A stretch of 64,000 nucleotides of DNA from Thermodesulfovibrionales bacterium (GCA_044450345.1 JBIOIY010000004.1:82534-146533), one strand, 5' to 3'; numbered from the stretch's first letter, positions 5,458-53,181 are shown. Numbers and translations are program-made. The notes: generated from the sequence alone by a model not told the origin.

Positions 5458-7041
5458 ATGAAAAATGGAAAAGGAGTAGTGTATCTTGTCGGGGCGGGGC
5501 CGGGTGACATCGGCCTGCTGACGGTGAAGGGGCTTAAGTGCCTTCAGAAGGCGGAGGTCGTCATATACGATTTCCATCTGAACGCACAGATACTCAACTA
5601 TATCAGCCACGATGCCGAATTCATATATGCCGGCAAGCGCGGCGGCCACCACACAATGACCCAGGACGAGATAAACACGACCATTGTCGCGAAGGCGAAA
5701 GAGGGAAAAAACGTCTGCCGTCTCAAGGGCGGCGACCCTTTTGTCTTCGGCAGGGGCGGCGAAGAGGCCCAGGTCCTTGTGCGGGAGGGAATCAGGTTCG
5801 AGGTCGTGCCGGGTGTGAGTTCCTCCATTGCCGCACCCGCGTATGCGGGGATCCCTCTTACCCACAGGCTTTACTCGTCCTCGTTTGCAGTTATCCCGGG
5901 CTACGAAGATACCACAAAAGAGGAGTCCTCCATCGATTGGTCGAAGCTTGCGACAGGGGTGGGCACCCTCGTTTTTCTCATGGCGGTCAAAAACATTGGG
6001 GTGCTTACGCAAAAGCTGATGGAGAACGGCCGGGACCCTGATACGCCTGTTGCCGTGATACGGTGGGGCACACGGCCGGATCAAAGGACCCTTCAGGGGA
6101 GACTGAAAGACATAGCCGATCTCGTTTTCGAAAGGGACATAAAACCACCCGCGGTCATGGTCGTCGGCGAAGTCGTGAACCTGAGGCAGGAACTGAAATG
6201 GTACGAATTGAAGCCGATGTTCGGCCACCGGATACTTGTGACCAGGGAGCATGCGGAGGGGTTCGAGGACCTGGAGGAACTCGGCGCGGAAGTCGTCCAG
6301 TTCTCGACGGTCGAGATCGTCCCTCCTCAGTCCTGGGATGGACTCGACGGCTGCATCGAAGGGATAGGCTCATACGATTGGGTGATCTTTACGAGTGCCA
6401 ACGGGGTCAGATATTTCTTCAGCAGGCTTTTTGAGAAAGGTGTCGACATCAGGGATTTGAAAGGCCTGAAGATCTGCGCGATAGGTACTAAGACCGCCGG
6501 TGAGATAAGGAAATTCGGGCTGAAGGTCGACCTGGTCCCCGAGGAATTCAGGGCGGAGGGATTGATAGAGGCCTTTGTAAAAGAAGTAGGGGCGGGGTCA
6601 CCCCGCCCCTACGTATTGAAAGGGACCAGGTTCCTTCTTCCCCGTGCAGAGGTCGCGAGGGAGACATTTCCGGAAAAGGTCCGTGAACTCGGCGGCGTCA
6701 TCGATGTGCCTGTGACCTACAGGGCGGTCAAGCCGGAGTATCACGGCAAAAGGATGAGGCGTTTTCTGAAGGAGGGAAGGATCACCATCGCCACTTTTAC
6801 GAGCGCTGCCACGTTCAATAACTTCATGGAGATCATGGGGGAGGATTCAGACGAACTCCTCAGGAATGTTGCGATAGCCGTCATAGGACCGGTGACTGCA
6901 AACGCCGTTAACAAGGCGGGGCTAAAGGTCGGGATAATGCCGGAGGAGGCGACGGTTGAAGCGATGGTCGAAGAGATAAAGAGATGGGCCGCAGGTAACA
7001 CCCCTCCCGAAAGTTTTCGGGACGCCCCACTCTTAAGATAA
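5458..7041 (+). CDS. cobA: Fused uroporphyrinogen-III C-methyltransferase / uroporphyrinogen-III synthase (CobA-HemD)
   Basis: VYLVGAGPGD and RLKGGDPFVFGRGGEE; C-terminal HemD half with IFTSANGV and FTSA. Confidence 0.95.
   Translation: MKNGKGVVYLVGAGPGDIGLLTVKGLKCLQKAEVVIYDFHLNAQILNYISHDAEFIYAGKRGGHHTMTQDEINTTIVAKAKEGKNVCRLKGGDPFVFGRGGEEAQVLVREGIRFEVVPGVSSSIAAPAYAGIPLTHRLYSSSFAVIPGYEDTTKEESSIDWSKLATGVGTLVFLMAVKNIGVLTQKLMENGRDPDTPVAVIRWGTRPDQRTLQGRLKDIADLVFERDIKPPAVMVVGEVVNLRQELKWYELKPMFGHRILVTREHAEGFEDLEELGAEVVQFSTVEIVPPQSWDGLDGCIEGIGSYDWVIFTSANGVRYFFSRLFEKGVDIRDLKGLKICAIGTKTAGEIRKFGLKVDLVPEEFRAEGLIEAFVKEVGAGSPRPYVLKGTRFLLPRAEVARETFPEKVRELGGVIDVPVTYRAVKPEYHGKRMRRFLKEGRITIATFTSAATFNNFMEIMGEDSDELLRNVAIAVIGPVTANAVNKAGLKVGIMPEEATVEAMVEEIKRWAAGNTPPESFRDAPLLR
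6586..6612. repeat. GTAG-type REP palindrome in frame within the hemD half
   Basis: GTAGGGGCGGGG-TCA-CCCCGCCCCTAC: perfect 12-bp stem, 27 nt, encodes VGAGSPRPY. Confidence 0.9.
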
Positions 7042-7150
7042 CGCCCCCAGGCTCCCTGCCTGCCGGCAGGCATGGCGCCTCTCCCCCTCTTTCCGCACTC
7101 AGGCGGATTCGCCGAGGTGAAAAGATAAGAGGGGGTAAAAGGGGAGTTAT
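6996..7150. repeat. Nested cluster of short palindromes
   Basis: TCCCGAAAGTTTTCGGGA (7005-7022), TGCCTGCCGGCAGGCA (7057-7072), TCCGCACTCAGGCGGA, and CCCCCTCT...AGAGGGGG arms. Confidence 0.8.
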
Positions 7151-7213
7151 GATTTCCGGGGGGGAAGGAGGAGGTATGATCGTCCCTCCGCTTTTTTGTA
7201 GCATCGTATTCTG

Positions 7214-7996
7214 ATGATTGCAGATAATGACACATATGTGACCGACCCTTACAGACCGCGGTCCCTGTTCTCGAGGGTCTTTCTCAGTCCTAAATTTATG
7301 TTCTACCCTCAGTTCTTCTTTATCATATGGCTGAACGGGAGGAGGGCGGAGAAAGGTCTCTATGGAAGCAGGGAGTGGGCCGAGAGCAGTCTGGATGTGA
7401 TGCGCGCTCTTGAGAACGTAGGCGTGCGTATCGAGATCACCGGCATGAACAACATAAAGAGATTCGGGGGCCCAGCGGTCTTTATCGGCAATCACATGAG
7501 CACGCTCGAAACGATGGTGCTGCCGTGCATCATCCAGCCGGTGAAGGAAGCCACCTTTATCGTTAAAAAGAGCCTTCTGACAATGCCTGTCTTCGGACAT
7601 GTAATGCGGTCGCGTGACCCTGTTGTCGTCGGCCGTGTGAACCCAAGGGAAGACCTCAAGACGGTCCTTGAAGAAGGTGTAAAGAGGCTCCAGGCCGGAA
7701 GGTCCGTCATCGTATTTCCCCAGAGCACGCGGTCAGTGGTCTTTGACCCGGAGGAATTCAACAGCCTCGGGATCAAGTTGGCGTCGAGGGCCGGTGTGCC
7801 TGTTGTTCCTGTGGCGTTAAAGACCGACGCATGGGGTATCGGGAAACACGTAAAAGAGTTCGGGCCTGTGGACACCGGGAAAAGAGTCCATTTTGCCTTC
7901 GGCGAGCCGATGACGGTAGCGGGCCGGGGAGTCGAAGAACACCAGAAGGTGGTCCGATTTATACAACAAAAGCTCGATGAGTGGAGCAAAGAGTAA
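7214..7996 (+). CDS. Lysophospholipid acyltransferase (PlsC-like)
   Basis: NHMSTLE block I (Glu in place of the usual Asp), IVFPQSTRS, VPVVPVA. Confidence 0.85.
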   Translation: MIADNDTYVTDPYRPRSLFSRVFLSPKFMFYPQFFFIIWLNGRRAEKGLYGSREWAESSLDVMRALENVGVRIEITGMNNIKRFGGPAVFIGNHMSTLETMVLPCIIQPVKEATFIVKKSLLTMPVFGHVMRSRDPVVVGRVNPREDLKTVLEEGVKRLQAGRSVIVFPQSTRSVVFDPEEFNSLGIKLASRAGVPVVPVALKTDAWGIGKHVKEFGPVDTGKRVHFAFGEPMTVAGRGVEEHQKVVRFIQQKLDEWSKE

Positions 7997-8039
7997 AAAG
8001 TGAAAAATGAATGGTGAATAGAAAAAAGCAGAGGGTGCA

Positions 8040-8288: not shown

Positions 8289-8343
8289 GACGGCATGCCT
8301 TCTGTTTCTCTTATCCCGCACGGCGTGGTACATTAATAGTGCC

Positions 8344-8460
8344 ATGGCTCAGAAGATACTTGGGGTCGATGACGATATGACCGGTTATTTCATCGAAGAG
8401 CCCTTCAGCATAGAGGCGCTCAGGAAAAAGGGTAAAGAAATATTATATGGGCCTTCCTGA
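8344..8460 (+). pseudogene. Internally deleted response-regulator receiver remnant (38 aa)
   Basis: Manual translation MAQKILGVDDDMTGYFIEEPFSIEALRKKGKEILYGPS: receiver beta1 joined to the beta5-alpha5 end. Confidence 0.65.
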
Positions 8461-10573
8461 AATAGACACTTCCTTATTCCTCCTCATTAACAAAAATCTC
8501 CGGAACGGACTCTTCGATGTAGTGATGCCCTTTGTCTCGAACAATTCGAAGGTCATCTTCCTGCCCCTTCTTCTCTGGATAGTCGTCAGAGAGCGGTCCA
8601 AGGCATTGTCTTACGTGGTGATATCAGTCCTTGCGGTCGCCTTCGCAGACGCAGGAGGAGGGGTCCTGAAGAACCTGATCGCAAGGGTCAGACCGTGTAA
8701 CGCCCTCGAAGGCGTCAATCTTCTCGTGGGGTGCGGAAAATCTTTCTCTATGCCTTCAAACCACGCATCGAACGCCTTTGCATTCGCGATGGCCTTTTGG
8801 TCCCTGCGCAGGGATGTCGTGACCTCCTTCTTTGTCTTTGTCGCCGCAGTTATCGGCATATCGAGGGTGTATGTGGGCGTCCACTACCCCTTCGATGTGG
8901 TTGCGGGCACAGCGCTCGGCACCGGATGCGCATATGGGGCGAGGAGGCTCTTTCGATGGGCATCCGATGTGTACAGACGGAGGGATTACGGCCAGGCCCT
9001 CTTTCTGATGGTCATGGCCTTCAGCCTCTTCCGTATTTATTATATCCTCAGCAGCCCCTTTGACCTTAGCGCCGACGAGGCGCATTACTGGGAATGGGCG
9101 AGGCGGCCCGACTGGAGTTATTATTCGAAAGGCCCGATGATCGCGTACCTGATCTATGCGGGGACAGCGGTCTTCGGCAACACTGTATTCGGCGTAAGGA
9201 TATTCGCGGTCGTCCTATCTGCCTTGAGCAGCGTCGTGCTTTTCAAACTGGGAAAAAGGCTCTACGGCGAGAGGACGGGGCTTCTGGCGGCGCTCCTGGT
9301 CCAGGTGGTCCCCCTTTATTCGGTATACGGAGTTCTCCTGACGATAGACTCCCCTTTCATCTTTTTCTGGATACTTTCGCTCTACCTCTTCTGGAAGGCG
9401 ATCGAAACTAAGCGTGCCGTTGCACCGGCCAGGGTAGACGGTAAAATAGCAGCTCCCCCTTCATCCCCCCCCTTGTCGGAGCGACCCTTCGCGGAGACCC
9501 GCTTCGGGAGAGGAGGGGATGAAGGGGAGGGCGACCGCATTGGCAACTGGATCTTGCTGGGTATTGCGATCGGCCTCGGACTTCTGACGAAGTATACCAT
9601 GGCATTTTTTTATCTTTCCGGTTTGCTCTTCTTTGTCTTTCATAAAGACTCCCGGGAGTTCCTTTACGGCAAAGGGCCGTATATCTCTCTTTTAGTAAGT
9701 CTTATGGTCTTCAGTCCGGTTATCATCTGGAACGCTGCCCACGGCTGGGTTACCCTGAAGCACACTGCGGGACAGGCCCACCTTGCAGACGGTCTTATGA
9801 TCTCGCCAAAAGATTTTTTCGAGTTCCTTGGTTCGCAGGCCGGCGTGATCACCCCCCTTCTTTTCGTGGGTATGTTAGTCGCGCTCTGGAAGATGCGCAA
9901 AGACAGGGCGGGCGCGTTTATATTCTGGTTTTCCGTGCCCGTGGTCCTTTTCTTTGTCCTCAAAAGCTTGCAGGGAAAGGTGCAGGCGAACTGGGCGCTG
10001 CCGGGCTATGCGGCGGGGTTCATAGCATTTTCCGCATACTTTGCCGGAGGCGGGATGCCCTCAAAGGGACGCTCCAAAATACTTCCGGCGCTCGCGGTCC
10101 TGCTGGCTTTTACCCTTACCGCATTCGCTTATTTCCCCTCGGTCCTTCATCTCCCCAGGAAGATGGACCCGACGATGAGACTACTCGGCTGGAAGGAACT
10201 GGGTCAAGAGACGGGCCGGATTTATGAAGGGCTCTCATCACAGGGGCCGGCATTCGTCTTTTCCGACAGCTACCAGATGGCCAGCGAACTCGCCTTTTAT
10301 ATGAAGGGCAACCCGACGACCTACTGTATCAATCTCGGCAGGCGCATGGACCAGTACGACCTCTGGCCGGGCTTCGAAAATTATATAGGCTGCAACGCGC
10401 TCCTGGTGATGGATGATGACCGGGAATTTCCCCAGGAGCTGGCAAAGAGCTTCGGGAGGACCGAGAAAGTGGCGGTCGTCATAACGGTGAGGGGCGACAA
10501 GGTAATGAAATTTACGGTGTTCAAGTGTTATGATTTCAAGGGTATTAAATCCAGGCCCCCGGAGACTTTTTAA
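8447..10573 (+). CDS. PAP2 phosphatase fused to ArnT/PMT-like (GT-C) glycosyltransferase
   Basis: K-x6-RP, PSNH and SRVYVGVHYPFD PAP2 motifs; DEAHYWEW, YYSKGP, LTKYT; many TM helices. Confidence 0.88.
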   Translation: MGLPEIDTSLFLLINKNLRNGLFDVVMPFVSNNSKVIFLPLLLWIVVRERSKALSYVVISVLAVAFADAGGGVLKNLIARVRPCNALEGVNLLVGCGKSFSMPSNHASNAFAFAMAFWSLRRDVVTSFFVFVAAVIGISRVYVGVHYPFDVVAGTALGTGCAYGARRLFRWASDVYRRRDYGQALFLMVMAFSLFRIYYILSSPFDLSADEAHYWEWARRPDWSYYSKGPMIAYLIYAGTAVFGNTVFGVRIFAVVLSALSSVVLFKLGKRLYGERTGLLAALLVQVVPLYSVYGVLLTIDSPFIFFWILSLYLFWKAIETKRAVAPARVDGKIAAPPSSPPLSERPFAETRFGRGGDEGEGDRIGNWILLGIAIGLGLLTKYTMAFFYLSGLLFFVFHKDSREFLYGKGPYISLLVSLMVFSPVIIWNAAHGWVTLKHTAGQAHLADGLMISPKDFFEFLGSQAGVITPLLFVGMLVALWKMRKDRAGAFIFWFSVPVVLFFVLKSLQGKVQANWALPGYAAGFIAFSAYFAGGGMPSKGRSKILPALAVLLAFTLTAFAYFPSVLHLPRKMDPTMRLLGWKELGQETGRIYEGLSSQGPAFVFSDSYQMASELAFYMKGNPTTYCINLGRRMDQYDLWPGFENYIGCNALLVMDDDREFPQELAKSFGRTEKVAVVITVRGDKVMKFTVFKCYDFKGIKSRPPETF
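9453..9529. repeat. Inverted repeat in frame within the GT-C gene
   Basis: CTCCCCCTTCATCCCCCCCC ... AGGAGGGGATGAAGGGGAG arms inside a roughly 40-aa Pro/Gly-rich loop between hydrophobic segments. Confidence 0.8.
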
Positions 10574-12424: not shown

Positions 12425-13831
12425 ATGGACATGCCAGGGGACCTCGAAGACTCAGACAAAAAATATATCTGGCACCCCTTTACCCAGATGAAGGAATGGG
12501 CGGATGAAAAGCCTGTCATCATCGCCGAAGGGAGGGGCAGTCATCTTATCGGCGTTGACGGCAGGACTTATATTGACGGCGTTTCTTCCCTCTGGGTGAA
12601 CATCCACGGCCACAGGAAAAAAGAGATCGACGGGGCGATCAAGGACCAGATAGACAAGATATCCCATTCGACACTCCTCGGGCTGGGCAATGTACCGGCG
12701 ATTCAACTGGCCGAGAAGCTGGTAAAGGTAATACAGCGGTCTTTCGATGGTAGGGGCGACCCTATGCGGTCGCCCTCTTGCGGGCAGGCACAGGGGCCTG
12801 CCCCTACAAAAGTCTTCTATTCCGACAACGGTTCGACCTCTGTCGAGGTCGCCCTCAAGATGGCGTTCCAATACTGGAAGCACAAAGGGGTTTCAGGGAG
12901 AGACCGTTTCCTTTCGCTCAACAACGCGTATCACGGCGATACGCTCGGAGCAGTGAGCGTCGGGGGCATCGACATATTCCACAGCGCCTTCGCTCCTCTT
13001 CTTTTCAATACGTACAGGGCGCCCTCTCCCTATTGCTACCGCTGCGAACTCGATATGAAATATCCCGGCTGCGGCCTCGCATGCCTTTCGAAGATGGAAG
13101 ATATCCTCTCCGCCCATCACACCGGGATCGCGGCCCTCATCATAGAACCCCTTGTCCAGGCGGCAGGCGGGATGATCGTTTCGCCCCCCGGGTATCTGAA
13201 AGGCGCGAGGGAGCTATGTAAGAAGTATGATGTGCTTTTTATCGCCGACGAGGTCGCCACGGGGTTCGGGAGGACAGGGAAGATGTTTGCGTGCGAACAC
13301 GAATCCGTCATCCCCGACCTGATCTGCCTCTCCAAAGGCATCACAGGTGGATATCTCCCCCTGGCGGTGACTGTAGCATCGGGAGAGATCTATAATGCAT
13401 TTCTCGGCGAATTCAGCGAACTCAAGACCTTTTTCCACGGCCATTCCTATACAGGCAATCCGCTCGGCTGCGCCGCTGCGCTCGCATGCCTGGAGATCTT
13501 CGAAAAGGAGAGGACGCTCGAACAGCTCCTTCCTAAGATCGAAATCCTCGAAGACCGGCTGAGAGAGATATCAGGTATGGACCACGTCGGAGACGTCCGG
13601 AACAAAGGTCTTATGGCCGGCGTCGAACTCGTAAAAGACAAGGAGACAAAGTCGGCGTATCCGTGGGAGGAAAAGCTGGGCTGGCGCGTCTGCCATTATG
13701 TGAGAGAGAAGGGAATACTCATCAGGCCGCTCGGAAACGTGATCGTGATCATGCCGCCCCTGAGCATTTCCAGTGATGACCTGAGATATATGCTTGACGC
13801 AATAGGGGAGGCGATAGGCAAGGTAACATGA
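12425..13831 (+). CDS. bioA: Adenosylmethionine-8-amino-7-oxononanoate transaminase
   Basis: WHPFTQM, SSLWVNIHGH, YHGDT, ADEVATGFGRTG, LSKGITGG, HGHSYTGNP. Confidence 0.95.
   Translation: MDMPGDLEDSDKKYIWHPFTQMKEWADEKPVIIAEGRGSHLIGVDGRTYIDGVSSLWVNIHGHRKKEIDGAIKDQIDKISHSTLLGLGNVPAIQLAEKLVKVIQRSFDGRGDPMRSPSCGQAQGPAPTKVFYSDNGSTSVEVALKMAFQYWKHKGVSGRDRFLSLNNAYHGDTLGAVSVGGIDIFHSAFAPLLFNTYRAPSPYCYRCELDMKYPGCGLACLSKMEDILSAHHTGIAALIIEPLVQAAGGMIVSPPGYLKGARELCKKYDVLFIADEVATGFGRTGKMFACEHESVIPDLICLSKGITGGYLPLAVTVASGEIYNAFLGEFSELKTFFHGHSYTGNPLGCAAALACLEIFEKERTLEQLLPKIEILEDRLREISGMDHVGDVRNKGLMAGVELVKDKETKSAYPWEEKLGWRVCHYVREKGILIRPLGNVIVIMPPLSISSDDLRYMLDAIGEAIGKVT
12750..12807. repeat. REPIN-like doublet in frame within bioA
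   Basis: GTAGGGGCGACC..GGTCGCCC, a 6-nt spacer, then GGGCAGGC..GCCTGCCCCTAC: two GTAG REP units in inverted orientation. Confidence 0.88.
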
Positions 13832-15568: not shown

Positions 15569-18500
15569 GTGAAGAGCAGAAAAAATATTCCGGTTGTTGT
15601 AATAGGCGTCTTTCTATGTGCAGTTCTGATGTTGTCTGCCCAGGCAGAGGCCAATCCGCCGTCTCAGAAAGGGTACTGTATCCAGCCGCCTTTTCTTGTG
15701 GCCCCCAAGCAGCCGAATGTCCTCATTATACTGGACAACTCGGGCAGCATGAATTGTCTTGCATACCAAAGCGGATTCGACCCCTCGCAATTCACGAGCG
15801 GCACTTACTACGGATATTTCGATCCGACGAAGAATTATAGATACGATACCTCCAGCAGCACTGCAGCTGCTCCCAACAGATGGATACCGACCAATGCTGC
15901 AATGAACACCGGTACCGTGGCAAATCCGATTGCAAGCGGCAACCTGCTTAACTGGATAACCATGTCCAGGCAAGACATTGCGAAGAAACTCCTGATAGGC
16001 GGCAGGGCGGCTACGGGCATATCTTCCGCCGGTGCATACAATGTTGCTGACCGCACCACGAGCCCGGTGAAGCTGTATGCCGATAGCGACGCGACGTCAG
16101 GCCTTACGTGTACTACTAACGTTAAGTCCAATGACGGCACGGACAAGGTTTGCAGCAATAATAATGCGCAAACCTGTGATGCTGATAGTGACTGTGGCGC
16201 CGGCAACACCTGCAACTATCTCATATACCCTTTTGTCGGCGATTATAAATATACCGTTGCAACCGGCGATACTAACACATTCAGTATAGCGTTCAATGAC
16301 CCGAGCACATTAAAATTGTATCCAAACAGAAATTACCCCGGCAGTAATCCTGCTTATACTTTTCCTAACGCCTGGGTAGTCTCAACAGGGACCCAGGCAA
16401 ATGCGTATCAGACAGTAGACGAAACAACCGCCAATACTACTGACTATATAACAAACAAAACAACAACAGAGCAGGCGTTATTCGATTACGACCGCGCAAA
16501 CGCCGCCCTGCTGGCGGCCTCCGGTACCATCAGCAGTGTCACTGTTCACGCATATGCCAAGAAGACCGGTTCCGCCACTCTGTATCTTCAGGCAGTGATG
16601 TGGATGAATATTCCTCTTTTGCCGGATTCGGTCCAGCCTTCAGGGCTATCGGCATTGACTACGAGTTTCGCCGACATCCCGTTTGACTATCCATTGAATC
16701 CCATAACAGGCGCACCCTGGGACTGGAGCGACTTAACCGGTACTAACTCTGCGACGGGTCCGAACAGGCTGAAGGCCTTCGGTGTCCAGACAATGGGGCC
16801 ATCCAACGCATCACCGACATCTTCTCTCTATGCTACGGTAAGCCAGGTTTACATACAGATAAACGTCTCCTCCCCGCCGGCCGGGGGGCCGTATAAAATT
16901 ATCGTGGATCAGGGGACCACGCCGGCAACAGGGATACTGGATGCCATGAGCACTGAAGTCAGGTTCGGACTGGCCCAATATAATTCCAACGGAGTCGGCG
17001 GGAAGATAGCCGATACCAGCGCAACGACCCCCACCTATGTCAATGCCGGCAATGTCCCGAACATTGTCAAGACGATCAGCAATACAATAGGTGCAAGCAC
17101 TACCCCTCTGGCAGAGACCCTTTATGAAATGGAGAGGTATTTTCGTCAGGATTCAACATATTACAGCTCTGCAGACTATACAAAAGGCTGCGCCACTGCC
17201 CTAAATGGGACTTCTAACTGTACAGGTCAAAGCGTCAACACCAATGACCCATATTTTTATGGGGGTTCTATTAATCAATATGTGCCTTGTACCCAGTCAT
17301 ATGTCCTCTTGTTGACTGACGGGGAATCCTATAGCGATACGGCCCTTCCCTCAACTACGCCGGCATCGCCCTACGCTCCCTGTTCCCTTACGAATATAAA
17401 GGGGTGTTCGGGTGCGGGAACTTTGCCCCGTCCCACCAGATTTGGCGGGACCACGATCGGACAGACTTATACCGGTTCAGGCTCGGATTATCTGATTGAT
17501 GTGGCATACTGGGGAAGGACAAACGACATGCGTACCGGGGCAACTGATCTGCCGACCAACTGGCAGCAAGGGCTCCCGAAAACCCAGAACATCTACCTTT
17601 ACACGGTCTTCCTCTTCGGCAGCGGTTCTACGCTCCTGCAGGACGCTGCAATTTACGGCGGGTTCCAGGACATTAACGGCAACAATCAGCCTGACTGTAC
17701 GACAAAGCCCGAGGAATGCTATCGGGACAGCAATGGTGACGGCCATATTTATTCCGTAAGGCATCGTTTCTGCACAAATGAGGCACCCACCTTTGCCACA
17801 ACCTGCTTAACTGACGCTAACTGCACTGCGGGCGGGACCTGTCTTGACCCGGATGCTCCCATTACCTATTACGAGGGCGATGACGGTTATAAACTGCAGG
17901 CGAGCATAACGGCCGCCCTTACCGAAATATTGAAGAGGGCGGCGTCGGGGACCGCGGCCTCGGTTCTGGCCTCAGGACAGGGTAGCGGAGCCAACCTGCT
18001 GCAAGCCATCTTTTACCCCAAGCGGTCCATAAGCGGCCAATCTGATATTATGTGGACCAGCACGCTCCAGAACCTCTGGTATTATATCAATCCCAGTTCA
18101 TCATCCGCGAGCACTATCAGGGAGAACACAGCGGATACAGGCTCAATCTATGAACTGAACCTCGATAAAGACAACATCATCAACTTTTTCTTTGACGATA
18201 CAACTCAAATGACCAAGGCGAACCTCTTCGCTGATGCAAATGGCGACGGCGTTGCCGACAGTACGATCCCTACTGCGGTTGTCGATGGGACAGCTGTCAA
18301 GAACCTGTGGGAGGCAGGGTTGATGCTCTGGAACACAAGTGCCGATAGCAGAAAGATCTATACGAACGTGACCGACACCTATGCTGCGACAACAACTGCG
18401 TTTGCCGGAATGACGGAGTTCAAAACAGCGAATCTCACCGGCACCACTCCCACGCTCCAGAGCCTGTTGAACACAGACTATACAGTTGGGACCGGGATCG

Positions 18501-20863
18501 GCCAAAGGACGGCTGCGAATAATACGACAGTCGCACAAAATATAATCAACTATGTCCGGGGTACTGATATCGCTCCTGTCACATTGACGACTCCGACGGA
18601 GACCATTTCTTACAGGTCCAGATCAACCGCTATTGACTTGAGCAGCCCGCCAAACGGTACGGTCACCGATACATATACGATCAACGGGGCAACCTGGAGT
18701 GAGGCCAGCAAGGTCTGGAAGCTGGGTGACATCATCGATTCGACCCCGCGCGTGGCATCCTGGATACCCCTGAACAAATACGACACATGGTACGGAGACG
18801 GCCCCTATTCCACATTTATCGGAACATCGACATACCAAGGCAGGGGCATGGTGTTTACAGGAGCCAACGACGGCATGCTCCATGCATTCAAACTCGGCAC
18901 CCTTGATCCGCTATCGGTGTGCAAGGGCACAACGACTTCCTGTTTTTCTGACGCTGACTGCGTCGGGGTTGGGGGTGGCGTGTGCATACGGGCCCAGAAC
19001 ATCTCAGGGTTCATCAAGGCAAGGCTCTGCGAGGACGCCAACGGAAACGGCAAATGCGAGCCGTCTGAGACCACCAAAAGCAACCTGGGCAAAGAACAAT
19101 GGGCGTTTATACCTAAAAGTGCCCTGCCGTATCTGCAGTATCTTTCCAACCCGGATTATTGCCATCTCTACTATGTCGATGCCACCTCTTATTTATTTGA
19201 TGCAAGCATAGAGGCGCCCGGCGTCCATCCAACCGATTACTGGACTCAGACCAAAAAGGTCATGTGCGGATCAAATCAACCGTGCACCCCCACCAATAAT
19301 ACGCTTGACCTGGCCAATTCAAGCTGGAGATCGATACTGATCGGCGGCATGAGGCTCGGCGGCGCCTGCAGCGGTCCCAGCTATTGCAAGCTGATCGCCT
19401 CACCTTTTACAGTAACGACGACGATATGCAGTGATGATGCCGACTGCGCGACCGGATACAGCTGTGCAAAAACAGCGAATACGGTCGGAGCGCCTGCAAC
19501 TAATCTAGGGTATTCGTCATATTTTGCCCTTGATGTCACTGATCCCTCTGCGCCGCAGCTGATGTGGGAATTTACAAATCCTAACCTCGGCGCTGCATCG
19601 AGCGGCGCGGCGGTTGTAAAAATACAAGCCAGGACTTCAACCGGGACTTCGAGCATGACTGATGCTGGTGCGGACAAGATCAAGAGAAACGGAAAGTGGT
19701 TTGCCGTCATTGCATCCGGCCCCACCGGCCCGGTGGGGAATTCACTGTTCAAAGGCTTTTCCAACCAGAACCTCAGACTCTTTGTCCTTGACCTGAAAAC
19801 AGGGACCCTGCTCCGTACCATAGATACCGGAATAGCAAATGCTTTTGGCGGTTCCATGACCAATGCAACTGTTGATTGGGATCTCGATTACCAGGATGAC
19901 GCCTTGTACCTTGGCTATACTAAATCGGAAGACGCGACACCTTCGGGCACCACGGCCTGGACCAAGGGCGGAGTGCTCCGTCTTATCACCAGGGAGGACC
20001 TGAGCGGCAATGATGTATCAACTACCGGCAACACTGCGCTGAACCCGGCAAACTGGCTTGTGACCAAGGTCATTGACAACATCGGTCCGGTGACCTCTGC
20101 GATCGGGCATCTTGTCCATTATCCTTTTTCTGCGGCGCCTAATTTTTCGGCGAATAACACGCCTCCTGACAAGGCGTACATCTACTTCGGCTCGGGTCGT
20201 TATTTTTACCCTTTCGATGATACTGCGAACCAGCGGGCGCTATATGGTGTGGTCGAGCCCTGCCTTTCCAAAAATCGTCCTTCAGGTGGCGACTGGACGG
20301 GATTCACTACGACCGATACAACCGTAGCGCCGGTATGTGACGACAATGGCGGGACGCCTGTGACCTGCCTTACCACGTCGACCCCTCCGGCAAAGGACTT
20401 CTTCTCTCCGGCGAGCTGCCTGACGGACGCGACTTTAAGTTCAACTCTGACCAGTGCGCCGAATGGATGGTATATAAACCTCGATACCCCGGCAGGAACA
20501 CTGTACAGTGAACGGGTGATCACCGACCCGCTCGCCGCGAAGAGCGGGGTTGTCTTTTTCACTACCTTCTCTCCGGATACGGATATCTGCGCCTATGGCG
20601 GCAACACTAGTCTATGGGCCGTCCAATTTGACACTGGCGGCGCCGTCGGTGACAAAATTGAGGGTATGGGATTGCTGCAGGTGTCGACCGGCGCTATTGC
20701 GGAGGTCAACCTGGGCGCCCGTTTCGGCGATAAGACTGACGTAAGTCACAAGTTAGGCCGGAGGACCACCTCCATAGAGGGAGTGCCGCCTTCAGGCCAG
20801 GGGCTCGCGGTGATACTTGCTCCGCCGCCGGTCGATACATTTGTTCATATAAGAAAAAAATGA
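15569..20863 (+). CDS. pilY1: Type IV pilus tip adhesin PilY1/PilC-like (1764 aa)
   Basis: Signal peptide, vWA ILDNSGSM/TPLAE/LTDG, WKLGDIIDSTP, GANDGMLHAF, EQWAFIP, YYVD, FALDVTDP. Confidence 0.9.
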   Translation: MKSRKNIPVVVIGVFLCAVLMLSAQAEANPPSQKGYCIQPPFLVAPKQPNVLIILDNSGSMNCLAYQSGFDPSQFTSGTYYGYFDPTKNYRYDTSSSTAAAPNRWIPTNAAMNTGTVANPIASGNLLNWITMSRQDIAKKLLIGGRAATGISSAGAYNVADRTTSPVKLYADSDATSGLTCTTNVKSNDGTDKVCSNNNAQTCDADSDCGAGNTCNYLIYPFVGDYKYTVATGDTNTFSIAFNDPSTLKLYPNRNYPGSNPAYTFPNAWVVSTGTQANAYQTVDETTANTTDYITNKTTTEQALFDYDRANAALLAASGTISSVTVHAYAKKTGSATLYLQAVMWMNIPLLPDSVQPSGLSALTTSFADIPFDYPLNPITGAPWDWSDLTGTNSATGPNRLKAFGVQTMGPSNASPTSSLYATVSQVYIQINVSSPPAGGPYKIIVDQGTTPATGILDAMSTEVRFGLAQYNSNGVGGKIADTSATTPTYVNAGNVPNIVKTISNTIGASTTPLAETLYEMERYFRQDSTYYSSADYTKGCATALNGTSNCTGQSVNTNDPYFYGGSINQYVPCTQSYVLLLTDGESYSDTALPSTTPASPYAPCSLTNIKGCSGAGTLPRPTRFGGTTIGQTYTGSGSDYLIDVAYWGRTNDMRTGATDLPTNWQQGLPKTQNIYLYTVFLFGSGSTLLQDAAIYGGFQDINGNNQPDCTTKPEECYRDSNGDGHIYSVRHRFCTNEAPTFATTCLTDANCTAGGTCLDPDAPITYYEGDDGYKLQASITAALTEILKRAASGTAASVLASGQGSGANLLQAIFYPKRSISGQSDIMWTSTLQNLWYYINPSSSSASTIRENTADTGSIYELNLDKDNIINFFFDDTTQMTKANLFADANGDGVADSTIPTAVVDGTAVKNLWEAGLMLWNTSADSRKIYTNVTDTYAATTTAFAGMTEFKTANLTGTTPTLQSLLNTDYTVGTGIGQRTAANNTTVAQNIINYVRGTDIAPVTLTTPTETISYRSRSTAIDLSSPPNGTVTDTYTINGATWSEASKVWKLGDIIDSTPRVASWIPLNKYDTWYGDGPYSTFIGTSTYQGRGMVFTGANDGMLHAFKLGTLDPLSVCKGTTTSCFSDADCVGVGGGVCIRAQNISGFIKARLCEDANGNGKCEPSETTKSNLGKEQWAFIPKSALPYLQYLSNPDYCHLYYVDATSYLFDASIEAPGVHPTDYWTQTKKVMCGSNQPCTPTNNTLDLANSSWRSILIGGMRLGGACSGPSYCKLIASPFTVTTTICSDDADCATGYSCAKTANTVGAPATNLGYSSYFALDVTDPSAPQLMWEFTNPNLGAASSGAAVVKIQARTSTGTSSMTDAGADKIKRNGKWFAVIASGPTGPVGNSLFKGFSNQNLRLFVLDLKTGTLLRTIDTGIANAFGGSMTNATVDWDLDYQDDALYLGYTKSEDATPSGTTAWTKGGVLRLITREDLSGNDVSTTGNTALNPANWLVTKVIDNIGPVTSAIGHLVHYPFSAAPNFSANNTPPDKAYIYFGSGRYFYPFDDTANQRALYGVVEPCLSKNRPSGGDWTGFTTTDTTVAPVCDDNGGTPVTCLTTSTPPAKDFFSPASCLTDATLSSTLTSAPNGWYINLDTPAGTLYSERVITDPLAAKSGVVFFTTFSPDTDICAYGGNTSLWAVQFDTGGAVGDKIEGMGLLQVSTGAIAEVNLGARFGDKTDVSHKLGRRTTSIEGVPPSGQGLAVILAPPPVDTFVHIRKK

Positions 20864-47117: not shown

Positions 47118-47152
47118 ACTATTCACTATTCACTATTCACCATTCACTTCTC
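47118..47152. repeat. Heptamer tandem array (ACTATTC)n
   Basis: ACTATTC x3, ACCATTC, ACTTCTC immediately before the nusB ATG. Confidence 0.85.
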
Positions 47153-47153
47153 T

Positions 47154-47684: not shown

Positions 47685-48989
47685 ATGATAGCGCGTTATA
47701 CACGGCATGAGATGGGAAGGCTCTGGGAGCCTGAGAACAGGTTCCAAAAATGGCTTGACGTCGAGGTCGCCGTCTGCGAGGCATGGACTGAGATGGGGAA
47801 GATCCCGAAGGGCTCGCTCAGGGTTATAAAGGAACGGGCGGGATTCGACGTGGGGAGGATAGATGAGATAGAGGCCGTCGTCAGGCATGACGTGATCGCG
47901 TTCCTTACCTCTGTGGCCGAGAAGGTCGGTCCTGAGTCACGGTATATCCATAAGGGTCTCACTTCGTCGGACATCGTGGACACCGCCCTGTCTCTACTTA
48001 TGAAAGAGGCGGCGACAATCGTCATAAAGGACATCAGGAACCTGATCGCGGTTCTGCGGGACCAGGCCTTTCGCTATAAAGAAACAGTATGTATAGGCAG
48101 GAGCCACGGCGTGCATGCAGAGCCTATGACGTTCGGCCTGAAATTCGCCCTCTGGTACGAAGAGGCGAAGAGGAACCTCGAGCGCATGGAGAAGGCCAAG
48201 AGGATTATCAGCATTGGAAAATTTTCAGGTGCGGTGGGTACCTTTTCGAACATACCGACCGAGATAGAAGAGAAGGTCTGCAGGAAGCTCGGGCTCAAGC
48301 CGGAACCTGTTGCCACGCAGGTCGTGCAGCGGGACAGGCACGCGGAATATCTTGCCACCCTCGCCATCATAGCCGCCTCCGTCGAGAAGATAGCAGTCGA
48401 GATAAGGCATCTTCAGAGGACCGAGGTCCTCGAGGCGGAGGAGCCCTTTGCAAAGGGACAGAAAGGTTCTTCTGCGATGCCCCACAAGCGGAATCCCATA
48501 GGGTGCGAGAACCTCTCCGGACTTGCCAGGGTAGTCAGGGCGAATGCCGCAGCCGCGATTGAAGACGTTGCGCTCTGGCACGAGAGGGACATATCGCATT
48601 CTTCCGTGGAGCGCGTGATCATCCCTGACAGCACGATCCTTGTTGATTATATGCTCAACAGGCTGACCGGAATACTTTCAGGTCTCCAGGTCTACCCCGA
48701 GAAGATGAAGGAGAATATGGGCCGGAGCTACGGGCTCTTCAACTCTCAGCATGTCCTTATCAGACTGACTGAAAAGGGGATGTCCCGGGAAGACGCCTAT
48801 GCCATAGTTCAGAAGAACGCGATGTCGAGCTGGAAGAAAAAGAAAGACTTCAAAAGTCTGCTCCTCAAGGACAAGGACGTGAGAAGATATCTGAAGGCAA
48901 AGGAGATTGATGACATCTTCGATCTCAAGCATTACTTCCGTAACATCGGCTATATCTTCAACAGGGTCTTCGGCAAGGCCGGGCGATGA
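47685..48989 (+). CDS. purB: Adenylosuccinate lyase
   Basis: RHD, GRSHGVHAEP, GSSAMPHKRNP, ERDISHSS. Confidence 0.97.
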   Translation: MIARYTRHEMGRLWEPENRFQKWLDVEVAVCEAWTEMGKIPKGSLRVIKERAGFDVGRIDEIEAVVRHDVIAFLTSVAEKVGPESRYIHKGLTSSDIVDTALSLLMKEAATIVIKDIRNLIAVLRDQAFRYKETVCIGRSHGVHAEPMTFGLKFALWYEEAKRNLERMEKAKRIISIGKFSGAVGTFSNIPTEIEEKVCRKLGLKPEPVATQVVQRDRHAEYLATLAIIAASVEKIAVEIRHLQRTEVLEAEEPFAKGQKGSSAMPHKRNPIGCENLSGLARVVRANAAAAIEDVALWHERDISHSSVERVIIPDSTILVDYMLNRLTGILSGLQVYPEKMKENMGRSYGLFNSQHVLIRLTEKGMSREDAYAIVQKNAMSSWKKKKDFKSLLLKDKDVRRYLKAKEIDDIFDLKHYFRNIGYIFNRVFGKAGR

Positions 48990-49017
48990 AGGCGGACGGG
49001 AAGAGCCGATCTTGTCG

Positions 49018-52000
49018 ATGACCTACAGGTATAAGCGGCCGGCCGCAACCGGGGCTCAGAAGAGCGAGCTTCTTGCTTCCGTGCAGAAGTATATCGCCGG
49101 GAGCATCGAGGATATTCTTACCGAGTACTGTTTCTATATCGAGGCGAAGGAACCCCTTTTGACCGGGGAAGTGGAATTGTTACGGTGGCTCTTGAGCGAG
49201 ACCTTCGAGCCCGGAAACTTTTCAGAAGAGAGTTTCTTAACTCAGCCTTCAGCCCTCGGCCCTCAGCCCTTTCTTTTAGAGGTCGGCCCCAGAATGAATT
49301 TCACTACGGCATGGTCGACAAATGCTGTCTCTATATGTCATGCCTGCGGACTGGCGAAGATAACCCGGATCGAACGTTCAAGAAGATATAAGATAGTCAA
49401 AAGCGATGAAGAGCTGAAGAGCGGAAGTGCAGAAGCGATACCCCCTTTTAATTCCCCCCTTGCTAAGGGGGGACATAGGCGGGTGGAAAATACCGGGCTA
49501 GATTCTTTCATGGAGCTTCTCTACGACCGCATGACAGAGTGCTCTTATCCAAAGCGCCTTGAGACATTCGAAACCGGGACAACGCCTGAGCCATACTATT
49601 TCGTGCCCTTGATCAGGGAAGGCCGACCGGCGCTCGAAAAGATAAACCGCGAGATGGGGCTCGGGCTTGACGACTGGGACATCGACTATTACTACGAACT
49701 CTTTGTAAAGGACATCGGCAGGGACCCTACGAACGTGGAATGCTTCGACCTCAGTCAGTCCAACAGCGAACACTCCAGACATTGGTTTTTTAAGGGGAGG
49801 CTGGTAATCGACGGGCAGGAGATGCCGGGCAATCTGATGTCTGTCATAAAGGACACACTCGACAGAAACCCCAATAACAGTGTTATCGCCTTCAAGGACA
49901 ATTCGAGCGCGATAAGGGGTCATCCTGTGCAGACGATCATGCCGCTAATGCCCGGCGGCCCTTCGCGGTTCGGGAAGACGGGAGTTTCCTATGACCTGAT
50001 TTTCACGGCTGAGACCCATAACTTTCCCAGCGGGGTTGCGCCATTTCCCGGCGCAGAGACCGGCACGGGCGGGAGGATAAGGGACGTTCAGGCAACAGGC
50101 AGGGGCGCGCTCGTGATCGCGGGGACAGCTGCTTACTGCGTCGGAAATTTGCATATTCCCGGGTATGAGCTCCCCTGGGAGGATAAGGCCTTCTCCTATC
50201 CCTCGAACCTCGCAAGACCCCTGGCTATCGAGATCGAGGCGAGCAACGGCGCCTCTGATTACGGAAATAAATTCGGGGAACCGGTCATCCAGGGTTTTAC
50301 CAGGTCCTTCGGACTCAGACTGCCCGACGGCGAGAGAAGGGAATGGATCAAGCCGATAATGTTCACCGGCGGCGCAGGGCAGATGGACTCGAGACACAGG
50401 GAAAAAAAGGCCCCTGCGAGGGGGATGCTTGTCACGAAGATCGGGGGCCCCGCATACCGGATAGGTATGGGCGGCGGCGCGGCATCAAGCATGATCCAGG
50501 GGCAGAATATCGCCGAACTCGATTTTAACGCTGTGCAGCGGGGCGACGCAGAGATGGAACAGAAGATGAACAGGGTGATCAGGGCCTGCGTCGAGATGGG
50601 TGACGACAACCCTATAGTGAGCATTCACGACCAGGGGGCAGGCGGCAACTGCAACGTGGTCAAAGAGATAATCTACCCTGCCGGCGCAAAGATTGAACTG
50701 AGAAAGATACAGCTCGGCGACAACACCCTCTCGGTACTTGAGATATGGGGGGCCGAGTATCAGGAGCAAAACGCCCTTCTCATCAACCCCGAAAGGTCCG
50801 GAGAGTTCCTGGGACTCTGCAGCAGGGAAAAGGTCCCCTGCGCCTTCATCGGCGAGATCACAGGCGACGGATATATTGTGCTCCACGACGAAACCGACGG
50901 CAGTACCCCTGTAAACCTTCACCTTGACAAGATTTTGGGCGACATGCCTAGGAAGGTTTTTCACCTGAACCGGGTAAAACGGCAACTCAGGCCGCTTGAA
51001 CTTCCGGAAGGGCTGAGTGTCCGGGATGCACTCGACAGGGTCCTGAGGCTGGTTTCCGTTGGTTCGAAAAGGTTCCTCGCCAACAAAGTCGACAGGTCCG
51101 TTACAGGTCTCATAGCCAGGCAGCAGTGTGCCGGCCCTCTCCAACTCACCGTATCGGATGTTGCGGTGATAGCGCAGAGTCATTTCGGGCTTACGGGAGC
51201 TGCGATCTCGATAGGGGAACAGCCGATTAAAGGACTGATAGATCCTGCGGCGATGGCACGCCTGAGCGTAGCTGAAGCCATTACGAACATCGTCTGGGCC
51301 AGGGTGAGCGCATTGGAGGACATAAAGTGTTCGGGAAACTGGATGTGGGCCCCGAAACTCCCGGGTGAGGGCGCAGACCTATACGATGCGGCAGTTGCCA
51401 TGCGTGATATCATGGTCGGACTCGGCATAGCGGTCGACGGCGGAAAAGACAGCCTTTCTATGGCTGCAAGGGTCACAGGCCGGAACGGGGAGTCAGAGAC
51501 GGTCAAGTCGCCGGGGACCCTCGTCATATCTGCGTATGTCACGTGTCCCGACATCAATAAAGTCGTAACCCCCGACATCAAGAGGCCCGGTGAAAGCAAT
51601 CTCATGTGTATAGATTTGGGAATGGGCAAGAACCGGCTGGGCGGATCGGCCCTTGCGCAGTGTTACGGACAGGTCGGTGATGAATCCCCTGATCTGGAAG
51701 ATCCCAAATTGCTCAAGGATTGTTTCAACGCCCTGCAGGAATTGATCTCGGAGGATTTGATACTGGCCGGTCATGACAGGAGCGACGGTGGTCTCATTAC
51801 GACCCTGCTGGAGATGGCTTTTTCCGGGAATTGCGGGATGGAGATAGCAATCGGCGGTCAGTCTCCTCCGGCGACCCGCCGTGGCGGGCAATCGGCAATC
51901 AGCGGTCGGGACGTGCATAAGGAAGCAATATCCTTGCTCTTCTCCGAAGAACCCGGGATGGTTATTGAATACCTCCCTGAGGACGAGGGGAAAATAATTT

Positions 52001-53181
52001 CAGTGCTTCAGAAACAGAATGTCCCATTTCAAATAATAGGCAGGACTTTAGTAGAAAAGAGGATCAGAATCTCACGATTCACGATTCATCCTCCGAAGGC
52101 GGACCCGCCTGTGGCGGGCGATTCATCCTCCGAAGGCGGACCCGCCTGTGGCGGGCGGTCCACTGTTTTAGATGAAGATATGCGCATCCTCAGGGATATT
52201 TGGGAAGAGACGAGTTCCCGGCTTGACAGACTCCAGCGGAATCATGACTACGTCGAGGAGGAGAGAAAGAATATCTTCGATATGAAGGCGCCTTCTTTTT
52301 CCCTGTCTTTTGTGCCGGGGCCGACTCCCCTTGAGTTGATTGCAAAGGGTGTCAAACCGAAGGTCGCCATTATCCGGGAAGAAGGCAGCAACGGCGACAG
52401 GGAAATGACTTCCGCCTTTTTTCAGGCGGGCTTCGATCCCTGGGACGTTGCGATGCAGGATTTTCTCCGGGAGAGAGTGAGCCTCGATGAATTCAGCGGG
52501 GTCGTTTTCGTCGGCGGCTTCAGTTATGCCGATGTGCTCGATTCGGCAAAAGGATGGGCAGGGGTAATACGGTTCAACAAAAATATATGGCAGCAGTTCG
52601 AGACTTTTTACCACCGGCCCGATACATTCAGTCTCGGGGTCTGTAACGGCTGCCAGTTGATGGCGCTCCTGGGGTGGGTGCCGTGGAGGGGTATCCCCGA
52701 CGGTATCCAGCCGAGGTTCATTCACAACAGATCAGGCAGGTTCGAATCGCGCTTTGTTTCAGTGAAGGTCCTGAAAAGTCCGTCTATAATGCTGGGCGGG
52801 ATGGAGGACTCTGTTATCGGTGTGTGGGTGGCCCATGGCGAGGGTCTTGCCTACTTCCCGGACGACGCGGTCAGAAGGAAAGTCCTGGAAGAAGGGCTGG
52901 CGCCTCTCAGGTTTGCAGATGACGGGGGAAGCATCACCGAACGTTATCCCTTCAATCCGAACGGCTCGCCCGACGGCATTACCGCGTTCTGTTCGGCTGA
53001 TGGAAGGCATCTCGCAATCATGCCCCACCCCGAACGGACCTTCCTGAAGTGGCAGTGGGGATGGATGCCTGAAGAATGGAGGGTGGGAACTAACGGTCAT
53101 TCCCCCCTGAATGCATCGCCGTGGCTTAAGATCTTTCAGAATGCGAGGGCGTGGTGCGACGCAAAGAGCGTCGAGAAATAA
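49018..53181 (+). CDS. purL: Large single-chain FGAM synthase with several repeat-derived insertions
   Basis: NSEHSRH, ETHNFP, HDQGAGG, GGKDSLSM, LGVCNGCQ, MPHPER; start approximate. Confidence 0.95.
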   Translation: MTYRYKRPAATGAQKSELLASVQKYIAGSIEDILTEYCFYIEAKEPLLTGEVELLRWLLSETFEPGNFSEESFLTQPSALGPQPFLLEVGPRMNFTTAWSTNAVSICHACGLAKITRIERSRRYKIVKSDEELKSGSAEAIPPFNSPLAKGGHRRVENTGLDSFMELLYDRMTECSYPKRLETFETGTTPEPYYFVPLIREGRPALEKINREMGLGLDDWDIDYYYELFVKDIGRDPTNVECFDLSQSNSEHSRHWFFKGRLVIDGQEMPGNLMSVIKDTLDRNPNNSVIAFKDNSSAIRGHPVQTIMPLMPGGPSRFGKTGVSYDLIFTAETHNFPSGVAPFPGAETGTGGRIRDVQATGRGALVIAGTAAYCVGNLHIPGYELPWEDKAFSYPSNLARPLAIEIEASNGASDYGNKFGEPVIQGFTRSFGLRLPDGERREWIKPIMFTGGAGQMDSRHREKKAPARGMLVTKIGGPAYRIGMGGGAASSMIQGQNIAELDFNAVQRGDAEMEQKMNRVIRACVEMGDDNPIVSIHDQGAGGNCNVVKEIIYPAGAKIELRKIQLGDNTLSVLEIWGAEYQEQNALLINPERSGEFLGLCSREKVPCAFIGEITGDGYIVLHDETDGSTPVNLHLDKILGDMPRKVFHLNRVKRQLRPLELPEGLSVRDALDRVLRLVSVGSKRFLANKVDRSVTGLIARQQCAGPLQLTVSDVAVIAQSHFGLTGAAISIGEQPIKGLIDPAAMARLSVAEAITNIVWARVSALEDIKCSGNWMWAPKLPGEGADLYDAAVAMRDIMVGLGIAVDGGKDSLSMAARVTGRNGESETVKSPGTLVISAYVTCPDINKVVTPDIKRPGESNLMCIDLGMGKNRLGGSALAQCYGQVGDESPDLEDPKLLKDCFNALQELISEDLILAGHDRSDGGLITTLLEMAFSGNCGMEIAIGGQSPPATRRGGQSAISGRDVHKEAISLLFSEEPGMVIEYLPEDEGKIISVLQKQNVPFQIIGRTLVEKRIRISRFTIHPPKADPPVAGDSSSEGGPACGGRSTVLDEDMRILRDIWEETSSRLDRLQRNHDYVEEERKNIFDMKAPSFSLSFVPGPTPLELIAKGVKPKVAIIREEGSNGDREMTSAFFQAGFDPWDVAMQDFLRERVSLDEFSGVVFVGGFSYADVLDSAKGWAGVIRFNKNIWQQFETFYHRPDTFSLGVCNGCQLMALLGWVPWRGIPDGIQPRFIHNRSGRFESRFVSVKVLKSPSIMLGGMEDSVIGVWVAHGEGLAYFPDDAVRRKVLEEGLAPLRFADDGGSITERYPFNPNGSPDGITAFCSADGRHLAIMPHPERTFLKWQWGWMPEEWRVGTNGHSPLNASPWLKIFQNARAWCDAKSVEK
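52072..52162. repeat. 37-bp tandem duplicate: heptamer array carrying two 30-bp double-hairpin units
   Basis: CGATTCATCCTCCGAAGGCGGACCCGCCTGTGGCGGG at 52082-52118 and 52119-52155. Confidence 0.92.

Follow-up and report, generated by a model that had tools for sequence, protein, structure and literature searches.

What brings palindromes and tandem repeats of 7-8 nt, in frame, into the genes of core enzymes? The question is raised by a stretch of 64,000 nucleotides from a Thermodesulfovibrionales bacterium (GCA_044450345.1, JBIOIY010000004.1:82534-146533; the whole stretch is here called the window), in which such DNA lies in purL, in a cobA-hemD fusion and in genes for a BioA-like aminotransferase and an ArnT-like transferase (Table 1). 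A first-pass annotation of the window had placed sites in these four genes and described them as one window-wide family, from which several classes of ultra-short mobile repeats were inferred. The sites were confirmed one by one, with reading frames open throughout and Pfam domains complete in all genes concerned. The single family was not upheld; the several classes were, and they are unrelated to each other, with copies also between genes, as had been claimed. The favoured explanation, with a probability of about 0.7, is that four kinds of repeat occupy tolerated loops of working enzyme genes. Repeat DNA, selfish or neutral, would persist there only if the frame is kept and the loop, linker or tail tolerates the added residues.

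The window's genome (G000) is a bin of 3.19 Mb in 86 contigs, the window being contig C4:82534-146533, and the relatives' genomes are labelled G001, G002 and so on. A single purL match is present in G000; therefore, the repeat-bearing copy is presumably the working gene. Twelve orthologous PurL proteins were aligned (the G008 row ends before site D), and the window genes were also aligned with those of five congeners. Many genes of the congener G004, a 10-contig assembly (L013-L016, L089-L108; G004:C8), match the window proteins only piecewise, which suggests frameshifts, possibly from sequencing errors. The congeners were therefore compared at the DNA level, and gaps were counted only from at least 6 nt.

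The inserts at purL sites B, C and D are missing in every orthologue that spans the site (10-11 of 11), as well as in the DNA of the five congeners. The site B insert is missing from 11 orthologues, and the site D segment from all ten other full-length orthologues aligned. Contigs of four other metagenome runs from four studies (X1, X2, X7 and X8), 95-99% identical to the window, were compared over purL. Site A is gap-free in contigs of the four other runs and site B in those of X1, X2 and X7, and therefore these two sites are no assembly artefacts. At site C the contigs of X1, X2 and X8 lack exactly 27 nt, and at site D those of X1 and X2 are net 63 nt shorter, with other letters in its place. 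The site A array recurs in four of the five aligned congeners at equal length with different units (CTCGGAA in G003); G005, whose segment is shorter by 9 nt, has no clear array. The octamer locus adjoining site B holds an 8-nt array in G006 and a related, more diverged array in G001.

Sites C and D carry a double hairpin, TCCGCC-nnn-GGCGGA followed by CCCGCC-TGT-GGCGGG, and at site D a 37-nt unit is repeated perfectly in tandem within an array of TCACGAT. The nesting described in the first-pass annotation was borne out by these purL elements, which lie inside heptamer arrays, and by a doublet of palindromes in the BioA-like gene. When the 27 nt of site C are removed from the sequence as read, a clean array is left (CAATCGG CGGTCAG CAATCGG CAATCAG CGGTCGG). 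Removal of both elements from site D likewise leaves TCACGAT in 3-4 copies, similar to G006, which has TCACGAT x3 and no hairpin at this position. No target duplication was found at C and D beyond the pre-existing heptamer unit, and the purL elements do not show the terminal inverted repeats with target-site duplication that mark miniature inverted-repeat transposable elements. Both C and D have the derived CCTCC variant, which indicates that one is a copy of the other.

The exact 21-nt core of the D element was found in 29 stretches of species genomes and in 37 metagenome stretches. By record title, its holders are Saccharibacteria (four copies in one bin), Magasanikbacteria, Peribacteria, Melainabacteria, Nitrospiraceae, Omnitrophota, Planctomycetia, Lentisphaerae, Ignavibacteria, Dehalococcoidia and Gammaproteobacteria; a few matches in high-GC actinobacteria may be due to chance. 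Of the 37 metagenome stretches, 26 have CCGCC at the position of the left arm, as do most of the 23 lower-GC genome stretches. The left flank TTT-CCGCC-nnA is conserved in the 23 lower-GC genome loci, so that the full element measures about 34 nt and consists of two adjacent hairpins. The GC content of the flanks goes down to 0.28. Most copies are not crossed by an open frame, namely those at 20 of 23 genome loci and at 25 of 37 in metagenomes. By eye, several copies seem to be lodged in sequence that resembles tRNA or in the loop of another hairpin. The Nitrospiraceae copies lie in related heptamer arrays at the same unit boundary (..TTA^CGC..). Rfam gave no double-hairpin family in 8 of the 29 genome loci, its sole match being a neighbouring tRNA, and a literature search with the motif letters found no relevant paper.

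The double hairpin, roughly 30-34 nt long, would thus be a mini-element shared across phyla that inserts at the boundary of a heptamer unit without target duplication; in this strain a further copy would have arisen within purL, followed by a tandem duplication. A bolder version can be put forward only tentatively. It makes the double hairpin one of the smallest mobile elements, gene-less and near-invariant from bacteria of the candidate phyla radiation to Nitrospirota, Melainabacteria and Planctomycetota. A widely shared enzyme would move it in trans into single-stranded hairpin loops, tRNA genes and heptamer boundaries without target duplication, and its entry into purL would be so recent that strains about 98% identical keep empty sites.

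Two further hairpin classes are dispersed among relatives. The class of site B, CCCCCCT-N3-7-AGGGGGG, which would form the second kind of repeat, was found in 19 of 31 relatives with up to 30 copies per genome (controls, 0-1), and purL of G022 has a C6/G6 hairpin close to the position of the window's site B. Searched with blastn-short, G000 gave no second copy of the purL B, C and D elements; pattern searches then placed all three in families. The third class consists of GTAG/CTAC palindromes, counted with the strict pattern GTAGGGGC-N6-18-GCCCCTAC and with the reversed pattern as control. The strict pattern is present in 14 of the 31 relatives at 1-18 copies per genome (control, 0-1), and its sub-types recur across different families. 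Palindromes of 20-40 nt with a GTAG tag, as in repetitive extragenic palindromes (REPs), were found at the cobA-hemD and BioA-like sites (27-28 nt); purL B, C and D have no GTAG tag and are therefore not assigned to the REP family. The first-pass annotation had called such REPs normally extragenic. Of the 21 relaxed matches of G000, 11 are intergenic, 6 are in genes and 4 at gene edges; the family is dispersed, with far fewer copies than classical REPs. REPs inside genes had already been published (PMC3733652). The in-gene copies include carB (two) and ileS, and other GTAG-like palindromes of G000 lie in a NuoG-like gene, cbiX-cbiC and cobQ.

The GTAG/CTAC palindromes, as part of the REP superfamily, were probably spread by HUH tyrosine transposases resembling REP-associated tyrosine transposases (RAYTs) and encoded elsewhere in the genome. 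As the first-pass annotation had stated, no gene of a mobilising enzyme lies within the window. In the remainder of G000, Y1/HUH matches comprise an IS200-like gene on contig C38 and RAYT-like genes on C77 and C53. The C77 reading frame (1563-1985) has GGGCGGGGAAACCCCGCCCCTAC on both sides, with GTAG palindromes at about 1520-1547 and 4790-4818; it thus shows the REPtron arrangement, a RAYT-like gene flanked by the same palindromes. The C53 frame (18148-18726) is of full length, and HUH (HIH/YFH) and YYEH motifs are visible in both. One of the RAYT-like candidates has a Pfam Y1_Tnp match of 25.9 bits against a cut-off of 23; Pfam assigned the C53 protein to no family at E<=0.01, and a PDB sequence search with the C77 frame gave a single weak, irrelevant match. 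With these motifs but with scores under the curated RAYT cut-off, the C77 and C53 proteins are RAYT relatives rather than confirmed members.

Similar arrangements occur in relatives: in G005:C41 palindromes at 22211 and 22541 surround a RAYT-like match at 22348-22545, and in G016:C172 and G013:C46 GTAG palindromes adjoin RAYT-like matches. RAYT-like genes were found in 12 of 31 relatives; both gene and palindrome occur in 11, GTAG only in 3, a RAYT-like gene only in 1 and neither in 16. Both RAYT-like genes of G000 also contain GTAG-type palindromes themselves, in the coding stretch that separates the HUH motif from the Tyr motif, and two more RAYT-like fragments lie on C77 near 5177 and 5900-6100. 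RAYT-like matches G004:C8:506319-506522 and G006:C52:26151-26351 are situated about 1.5-2 kb beyond a stretch syntenic with window positions 60100-60850, where the window itself has none.

The fourth kind of repeat is of a different nature. Period 7 is the largest tandem class of G000 (at least 3 copies), with 24 arrays (13 in genes, 9 between genes and 2 at gene edges) against 1, 0 and 0 in three fifth-order simulations. At seven loop sites with 12-20 orthologues each, a tandem repeat was found in 19 of 106 segments (16 of period 7 and 3 of period 8) and a perfect inverted repeat of at least 7 in 12 of 106. In controls from the same genes the figures are 23 and 57 of 2120, respectively, the control tandems having period 7, 8 or 4. 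Such recurrent filling in the orthologue alignments makes these loops hot spots for repeat DNA. In nearly all relatives, arrays of 7 nt, or sometimes 8 nt, would form and be replaced at these same loops, with strand slippage as the probable mechanism. Microsatellites, which the first-pass annotation had included among the mobile elements, are thus better described as tandem repeats turning over in place.

Perfect hairpins (stem of at least 8, loop of at most 6) number 614 in G000 and 385 in one third-order Markov simulation; with stems of at least 10, the same comparison gives 152 and 33. The excess is mostly intergenic. The 36 in-gene hairpins with a stem of at least 10 are near a simple scaling of the simulated total, and in-gene stems of at least 12 (14 cases) are the sole class clearly over expectation. 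The in-gene repeat phenomenon is real but numerically small in G000.

Purely local mutation is the strongest of the other explanations, though an unlikely one. Slippage would produce the arrays of 7-8 nt and template switching (fold-back copying) the hairpins, with nothing mobile involved. It fits the three successive arms in purL C and D (GGCGG / CCGCC / GGCGG), the perfect 37-nt tandem at D and the array units that differ between lineages at one loop. It also stays live for three inserts unique in the genome, namely the 30-nt insert of the ArnT-like gene, the tail palindrome of cobA-hemD and the rnfG insert. However, it does not account well for a 21-nt core found with its left arm in many phyla and often in AT-rich DNA, for GTAG and C6/G6 hairpins recurring with shared sub-types in several families, or for the derived variant common to C and D. 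Dispersed copies with filled and empty sites were found for all three hairpin classes. The annotated claim of motifs repeated through the genome therefore stands for these classes and fails for the three single-copy inserts. As regards the ultra-short mobile repeats that were said to add loops to proteins, dispersal of three hairpin classes and a strain difference in length at C and D are observations; active transposition, with an enzyme for each class, is what we infer from them.

The favoured explanation also implies that the added peptides would be without function. The annotated position of the inserts between conserved blocks was confirmed by the orthologue alignments, in which they appear as lineage-specific loop additions. 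CobA-HemD and the BioA-like and ArnT-like proteins were aligned with 20 orthologues each. The cobA-hemD palindrome is perfect (GTAGGGGCGGGGT-C-ACCCCGCCCCTAC, 13+1+13), and a decayed form is common to G004 and G005. Within the window's family this loop contains GTAG palindromes (G000, G004 and, decayed, G005) or heptamer arrays whose unit changes in almost every lineage; in five orthologues from other families it has 0-4 residues. In the BioA-like gene the doublet (GTAGGGGCGACC..GGTCGCCC plus GGGCAGGC..GCCTGCCCCTAC) is common to G000, G002 and G006, and 45 of its nucleotides are missing in G004. G003 has a different, single GTAG..CTAC palindrome in this loop, with near-copies in G004 and G005; in G030 and G022 heptamer arrays take its place.

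Predicted structures and domain matches locate the inserts. The cobA-hemD model (20 sequences) has a mean predicted local distance difference test score (pLDDT) of 81.5. VGAGSPRPY lies in a predicted coil (378-390) between a helix (366-377) and a strand (391-393), with pLDDT of 72-77 versus about 90 on either side, and the last 12 residues (516-527) form a disordered tail below 50. Mapping on structures thus succeeded for the cobA-hemD coil and tail; the model of the PurL C-terminal fragment, which puts C and D in low-confidence coil, is too poor for use (mean pLDDT 46.8). In the Pfam matches of PurL, site A is inside the N-terminal domain and site B overlaps its end, 144 residues being spread over 107 profile positions; C and D precede the glutaminase domain.

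A reading in which the peptides were selected, for example as flexible linkers of Pro, Gly and Ser, with the palindromes in the DNA a consequence of their codons, is very unlikely. Every insert is in frame and at a domain boundary or loop, and several are kept across congeners, as such selection would have it. However, peptides of the same loop are unrelated between orthologues, near-identical strains are without C and D, and the core DNA is elsewhere mostly outside genes. Furthermore, G005 retains the cobA-hemD palindrome translated in another frame (GGVTPP), which argues that DNA and not peptide was inherited. Least probable of all is that the metagenome assembler made the tandem at D and the insert at C: these are in none of the other runs compared and G000 is a bin of many contigs, but both keep the frame of a single-copy gene of an essential pathway, the element is faithful to the sequence in many independent assemblies, and independent assemblies also contain the heptamer array of site A and the insert of site B, along with the palindrome of cobA-hemD and the doublet of bioA.

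Several observations tell against repeats settling from elsewhere in tolerated loops. Sites C and D are known from the G000 assembly only, the compared runs being other strains. The double hairpin occurs in G000 in purL only and in 5 of 401 genomes sampled from the phylum, and its 21-mer was not found in viral contigs. Five strict GTAG copies in G000 are few for REPs, the C77 frame is truncated and has no N-terminus, and the two RAYT-like proteins score 60.7 and 50.8 bits with NF047646 (REP-associated tyrosine transposase, NCBIfam), whose curated cut-off is 80. The co-occurrence counts of palindromes and RAYT-like genes are not independent, the genomes being related. No further genome copy of the ArnT-like 30-nt insert, the cobA-hemD tail palindrome or the rnfG insert was found, and these three may be local mutations. 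Heptamer arrays as general landing pads in G000 had to be rejected, as 0 of the 152 long hairpins have heptamer flanks. In a census against G004 (297 genes, 313,552 aligned columns), 55 indels of at least 9 nt were counted, of which 9 were hairpin-like and 9 tandem-like at p<=0.05, one of them both, giving 17. Repeat DNA therefore made about one third of the length differences, and most were not made by repeats.

Table 1. Genes and repeat features of the window (positions from its first nucleotide)
Feature	Position	Strand	Remark
cobA-hemD fusion	5458-7041		Pfam
27-nt GTAG...CTAC palindrome in cobA-hemD	6585..6613	+	in frame, translation VGAGSPRPY
16-nt palindrome CCCGAAAGTTTTCGGG, C-terminal tail of cobA-hemD	7006..7021	+	10-nt indel vs G004
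Copy of the genome's most abundant palindrome family, CCTGCCTGCCGGCAGGCAGG core, intergenic	7049..7080		16-mer counts 19-30
PAP2 + PMT_2 (ArnT-like) transferase	8447-10573		Pfam
30-nt window-specific insert, ArnT-like gene	9413..9442	+	in frame, weakly palindromic
~75-nt imperfect hairpin, ArnT-like hypervariable loop	about 9456..9530	+	fold; translation APPSSPPLSERPFAETRFGRGGDEGEG
Class-III aminotransferase (BioA-like, Aminotran_3)	12425-13831		Pfam
58-nt doublet of GTAG-type palindromes, BioA-like gene	12750..12807	+	in frame
Heptamer array ACTATTC x4.4, intergenic	47118..47148		unit recurs in a gene at C44:17560-17590
purB	47685-48989		Pfam
purL, large single chain	49018-53181		Pfam
purL site A, heptamer array CTCAGCC x4.3, N-terminal domain	49241..49270	+	tandem repeat
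Octamer array TGAAGAGC x3.6, adjoining purL site B	49407..49435	+	tandem repeat
purL site B, hairpin TCCCCCCTTGCTAAGGGGGGA (49453-49473), then further G-run	49453..49491	+	12-residue insert PLAKGGHRRVEN
purL site C, double-hairpin element copy with small deletions	51862..51888	+	27 nt, between heptamer units
Heptamer array TCACGAT, host of site D	52072..52088	+	tandem repeat
purL site D, two identical 30-nt double-hairpin elements	52089..52118 + 52126..52155	+	one heptamer CGATTCA between
rnfG	55659-56306		Pfam
42-nt window-specific insert near rnfG C-terminus	56222..56263	+	in frame, nested GC stems

Four known systems can be compared with the window. Like REP/RAYT systems, G000 has GTAG...CTAC palindromes of 27-28 nt as singlets and doublets, between genes and also in frame in genes, and RAYT-like genes flanked by the palindromes. 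Unlike classical REPs, their copy number is in the tens, not hundreds; the RAYT-like proteins stay under the curated cut-off, and only the cobA-hemD and bioA sites of the window fall in this class. In-gene REPs are already known: Di Nocera et al. (2013, PMC3733652) describe GTAG and CGTC REPs in genes. Many of these are dimers that add 20-30 residues to the protein, and in two Xanthomonas species recB carries different REPs at nearly one site. The host here belongs to the Nitrospirota, a group not named in the text of that paper. Delihas (2011, PMC3184786) reviews in-frame fusions of repeats, and Bertels and Rainey (2011, PMC3116915) treat REPINs.

The palindromic elements of Rickettsia resemble the inserts in being palindromic selfish DNA in frame in housekeeping genes and read as extra peptide. 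Ogata and co-workers reportedly showed in 2000 that they are in frame in such genes and translated. A table in PMC3184786 lists them at about 105-146 nt. The inserts of the window differ in size (27-58 nt), in comprising several unrelated classes together with heptamers, and in lineage.

There is also a likeness by description to the small dispersed repeats (SDR) of heterocyst-forming cyanobacteria, which Elhai and colleagues are said to have found nested in heptamer (STRR) arrays in 2008. Common to both are very small hairpin elements, precise insertion, heptamer arrays and the lack of an own transposase. Sites C and D of purL show this type: their small hairpins stand inside heptamer arrays, and both sites occur filled as well as empty. 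Unlike SDR, the purL element is translated inside an enzyme gene, and its exact core is common to many phyla. Heptameric repeats are reportedly exemplified in bacteria by the TAACTGA repeats of Beggiatoaceae. According to Rehm et al. (2015, PMC4692102), they are over-represented in bacteria and under-represented in coding regions. Period 7 is likewise an over-represented class here; unlike the repeats of PMC4692102, more than half of the arrays (13 of 24) are in-gene, and orthologous loops hold such arrays repeatedly. A literature search found no paper combining heptanucleotide, tandem repeat and Nitrospir. What is new is the combination of classes in a Nitrospirota lineage, their recurrence at orthologous loops, and a cross-phylum mini-element in purL with filled and empty sites.

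Length variation of loops in core enzymes can thus be written by repeat DNA and not by selection on the protein. Since purL is filled here and without the inserts in 95-99% identical contigs, it offers a case for studying the movement of gene-less elements of about 30 nt. This links three puzzles, those of REPs inside genes, of heptamer repeats in bacteria and of tiny palindromes that different phyla have in common. In annotation, the repeats account for odd Pro/Gly/Ser-rich inserts and broken alignments in these genomes.

Other inserts of the window stand apart from these classes. The 30-nt insert of the ArnT-like gene has no significant hairpin (minimum free energy p=0.385). The hypervariable loop of this gene differs in 20 of 20 orthologues, and nearly all relatives' matches are broken at residues 321-367. 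In G001 the same loop of the ArnT-like gene (L071) holds another palindromic element, in frame and read as VIPACRESFRKNDPGQAGMT, which seems akin to the GACAAGCCGGAATGACA repeats, themselves among the most frequent k-mers of G000. The rnfG insert, a site beyond the four annotated genes, is missing from five congeners. Just past the cobA-hemD stop codon, window positions 7049-7135 carry the CCTGCCTGCCGGCAGGCAGG palindrome with a conserved tail of about 60 nt; together they form the most abundant repeat of the genome, with about 10-30 copies by 16-mer counts.

Heptamer units are shared between sites in some relatives: sites A and D of G015 purL (L011) have CACGCAT in common, and the bioA loop (L060) and purL sites A and B (L012) of G022 share CACTCGT. 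Each genome thus seems to have its own families of heptamer units, rather than units produced from the local sequence. A purB octamer at 48158-48173, considered as a repeat element, is conserved without indel and is best put down to chance. Upstream of the conserved Met of purL, the frame is open for 37 codons (window 48907-49017) and Ser/Thr-rich; the frame is also open over this stretch in G004, and over part of it in G006 and G005. Contig C4 holds a large share of the census indels, within the window and close to it, with purL and the gene of a PilY1-like pilus adhesin (15569-20863, 1764 residues) as the main contributors. The adhesin gene has a large share of indels of at least 9 nt versus G004, most of them not repeat-like.

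A small-hairpin pattern match at G000:C21:12354 is not a copy of the element, as the GC hairpins there match by chance. The surrounding minus-strand sequence (G000:C21:12200-12520; L159:2200-2520) looks by eye like an RNase P RNA gene. Bracketing of genes for 23S-rRNA-intervening-sequence proteins (23S-IVP) by heptamer arrays was not found in G000; contig C8 has a sub-threshold 23S-IVP fragment (30.3 bits) with one array about 600 nt away. A second GIY-YIG reading frame, on contig C1, has only an ordinary GC hairpin past its stop codon. The first, a nuclease gene of about 80 codons (G000:C12:1-400; L161), lies between a tRNA 5' fragment and an apparent full tRNA, and no hairpin of the window's classes was seen beside this cassette. 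ARAGORN called no tRNA at C12:1-400, perhaps because the contig ends inside it. The apparent full tRNA and the 5' fragment are identical in their first 21 bases.

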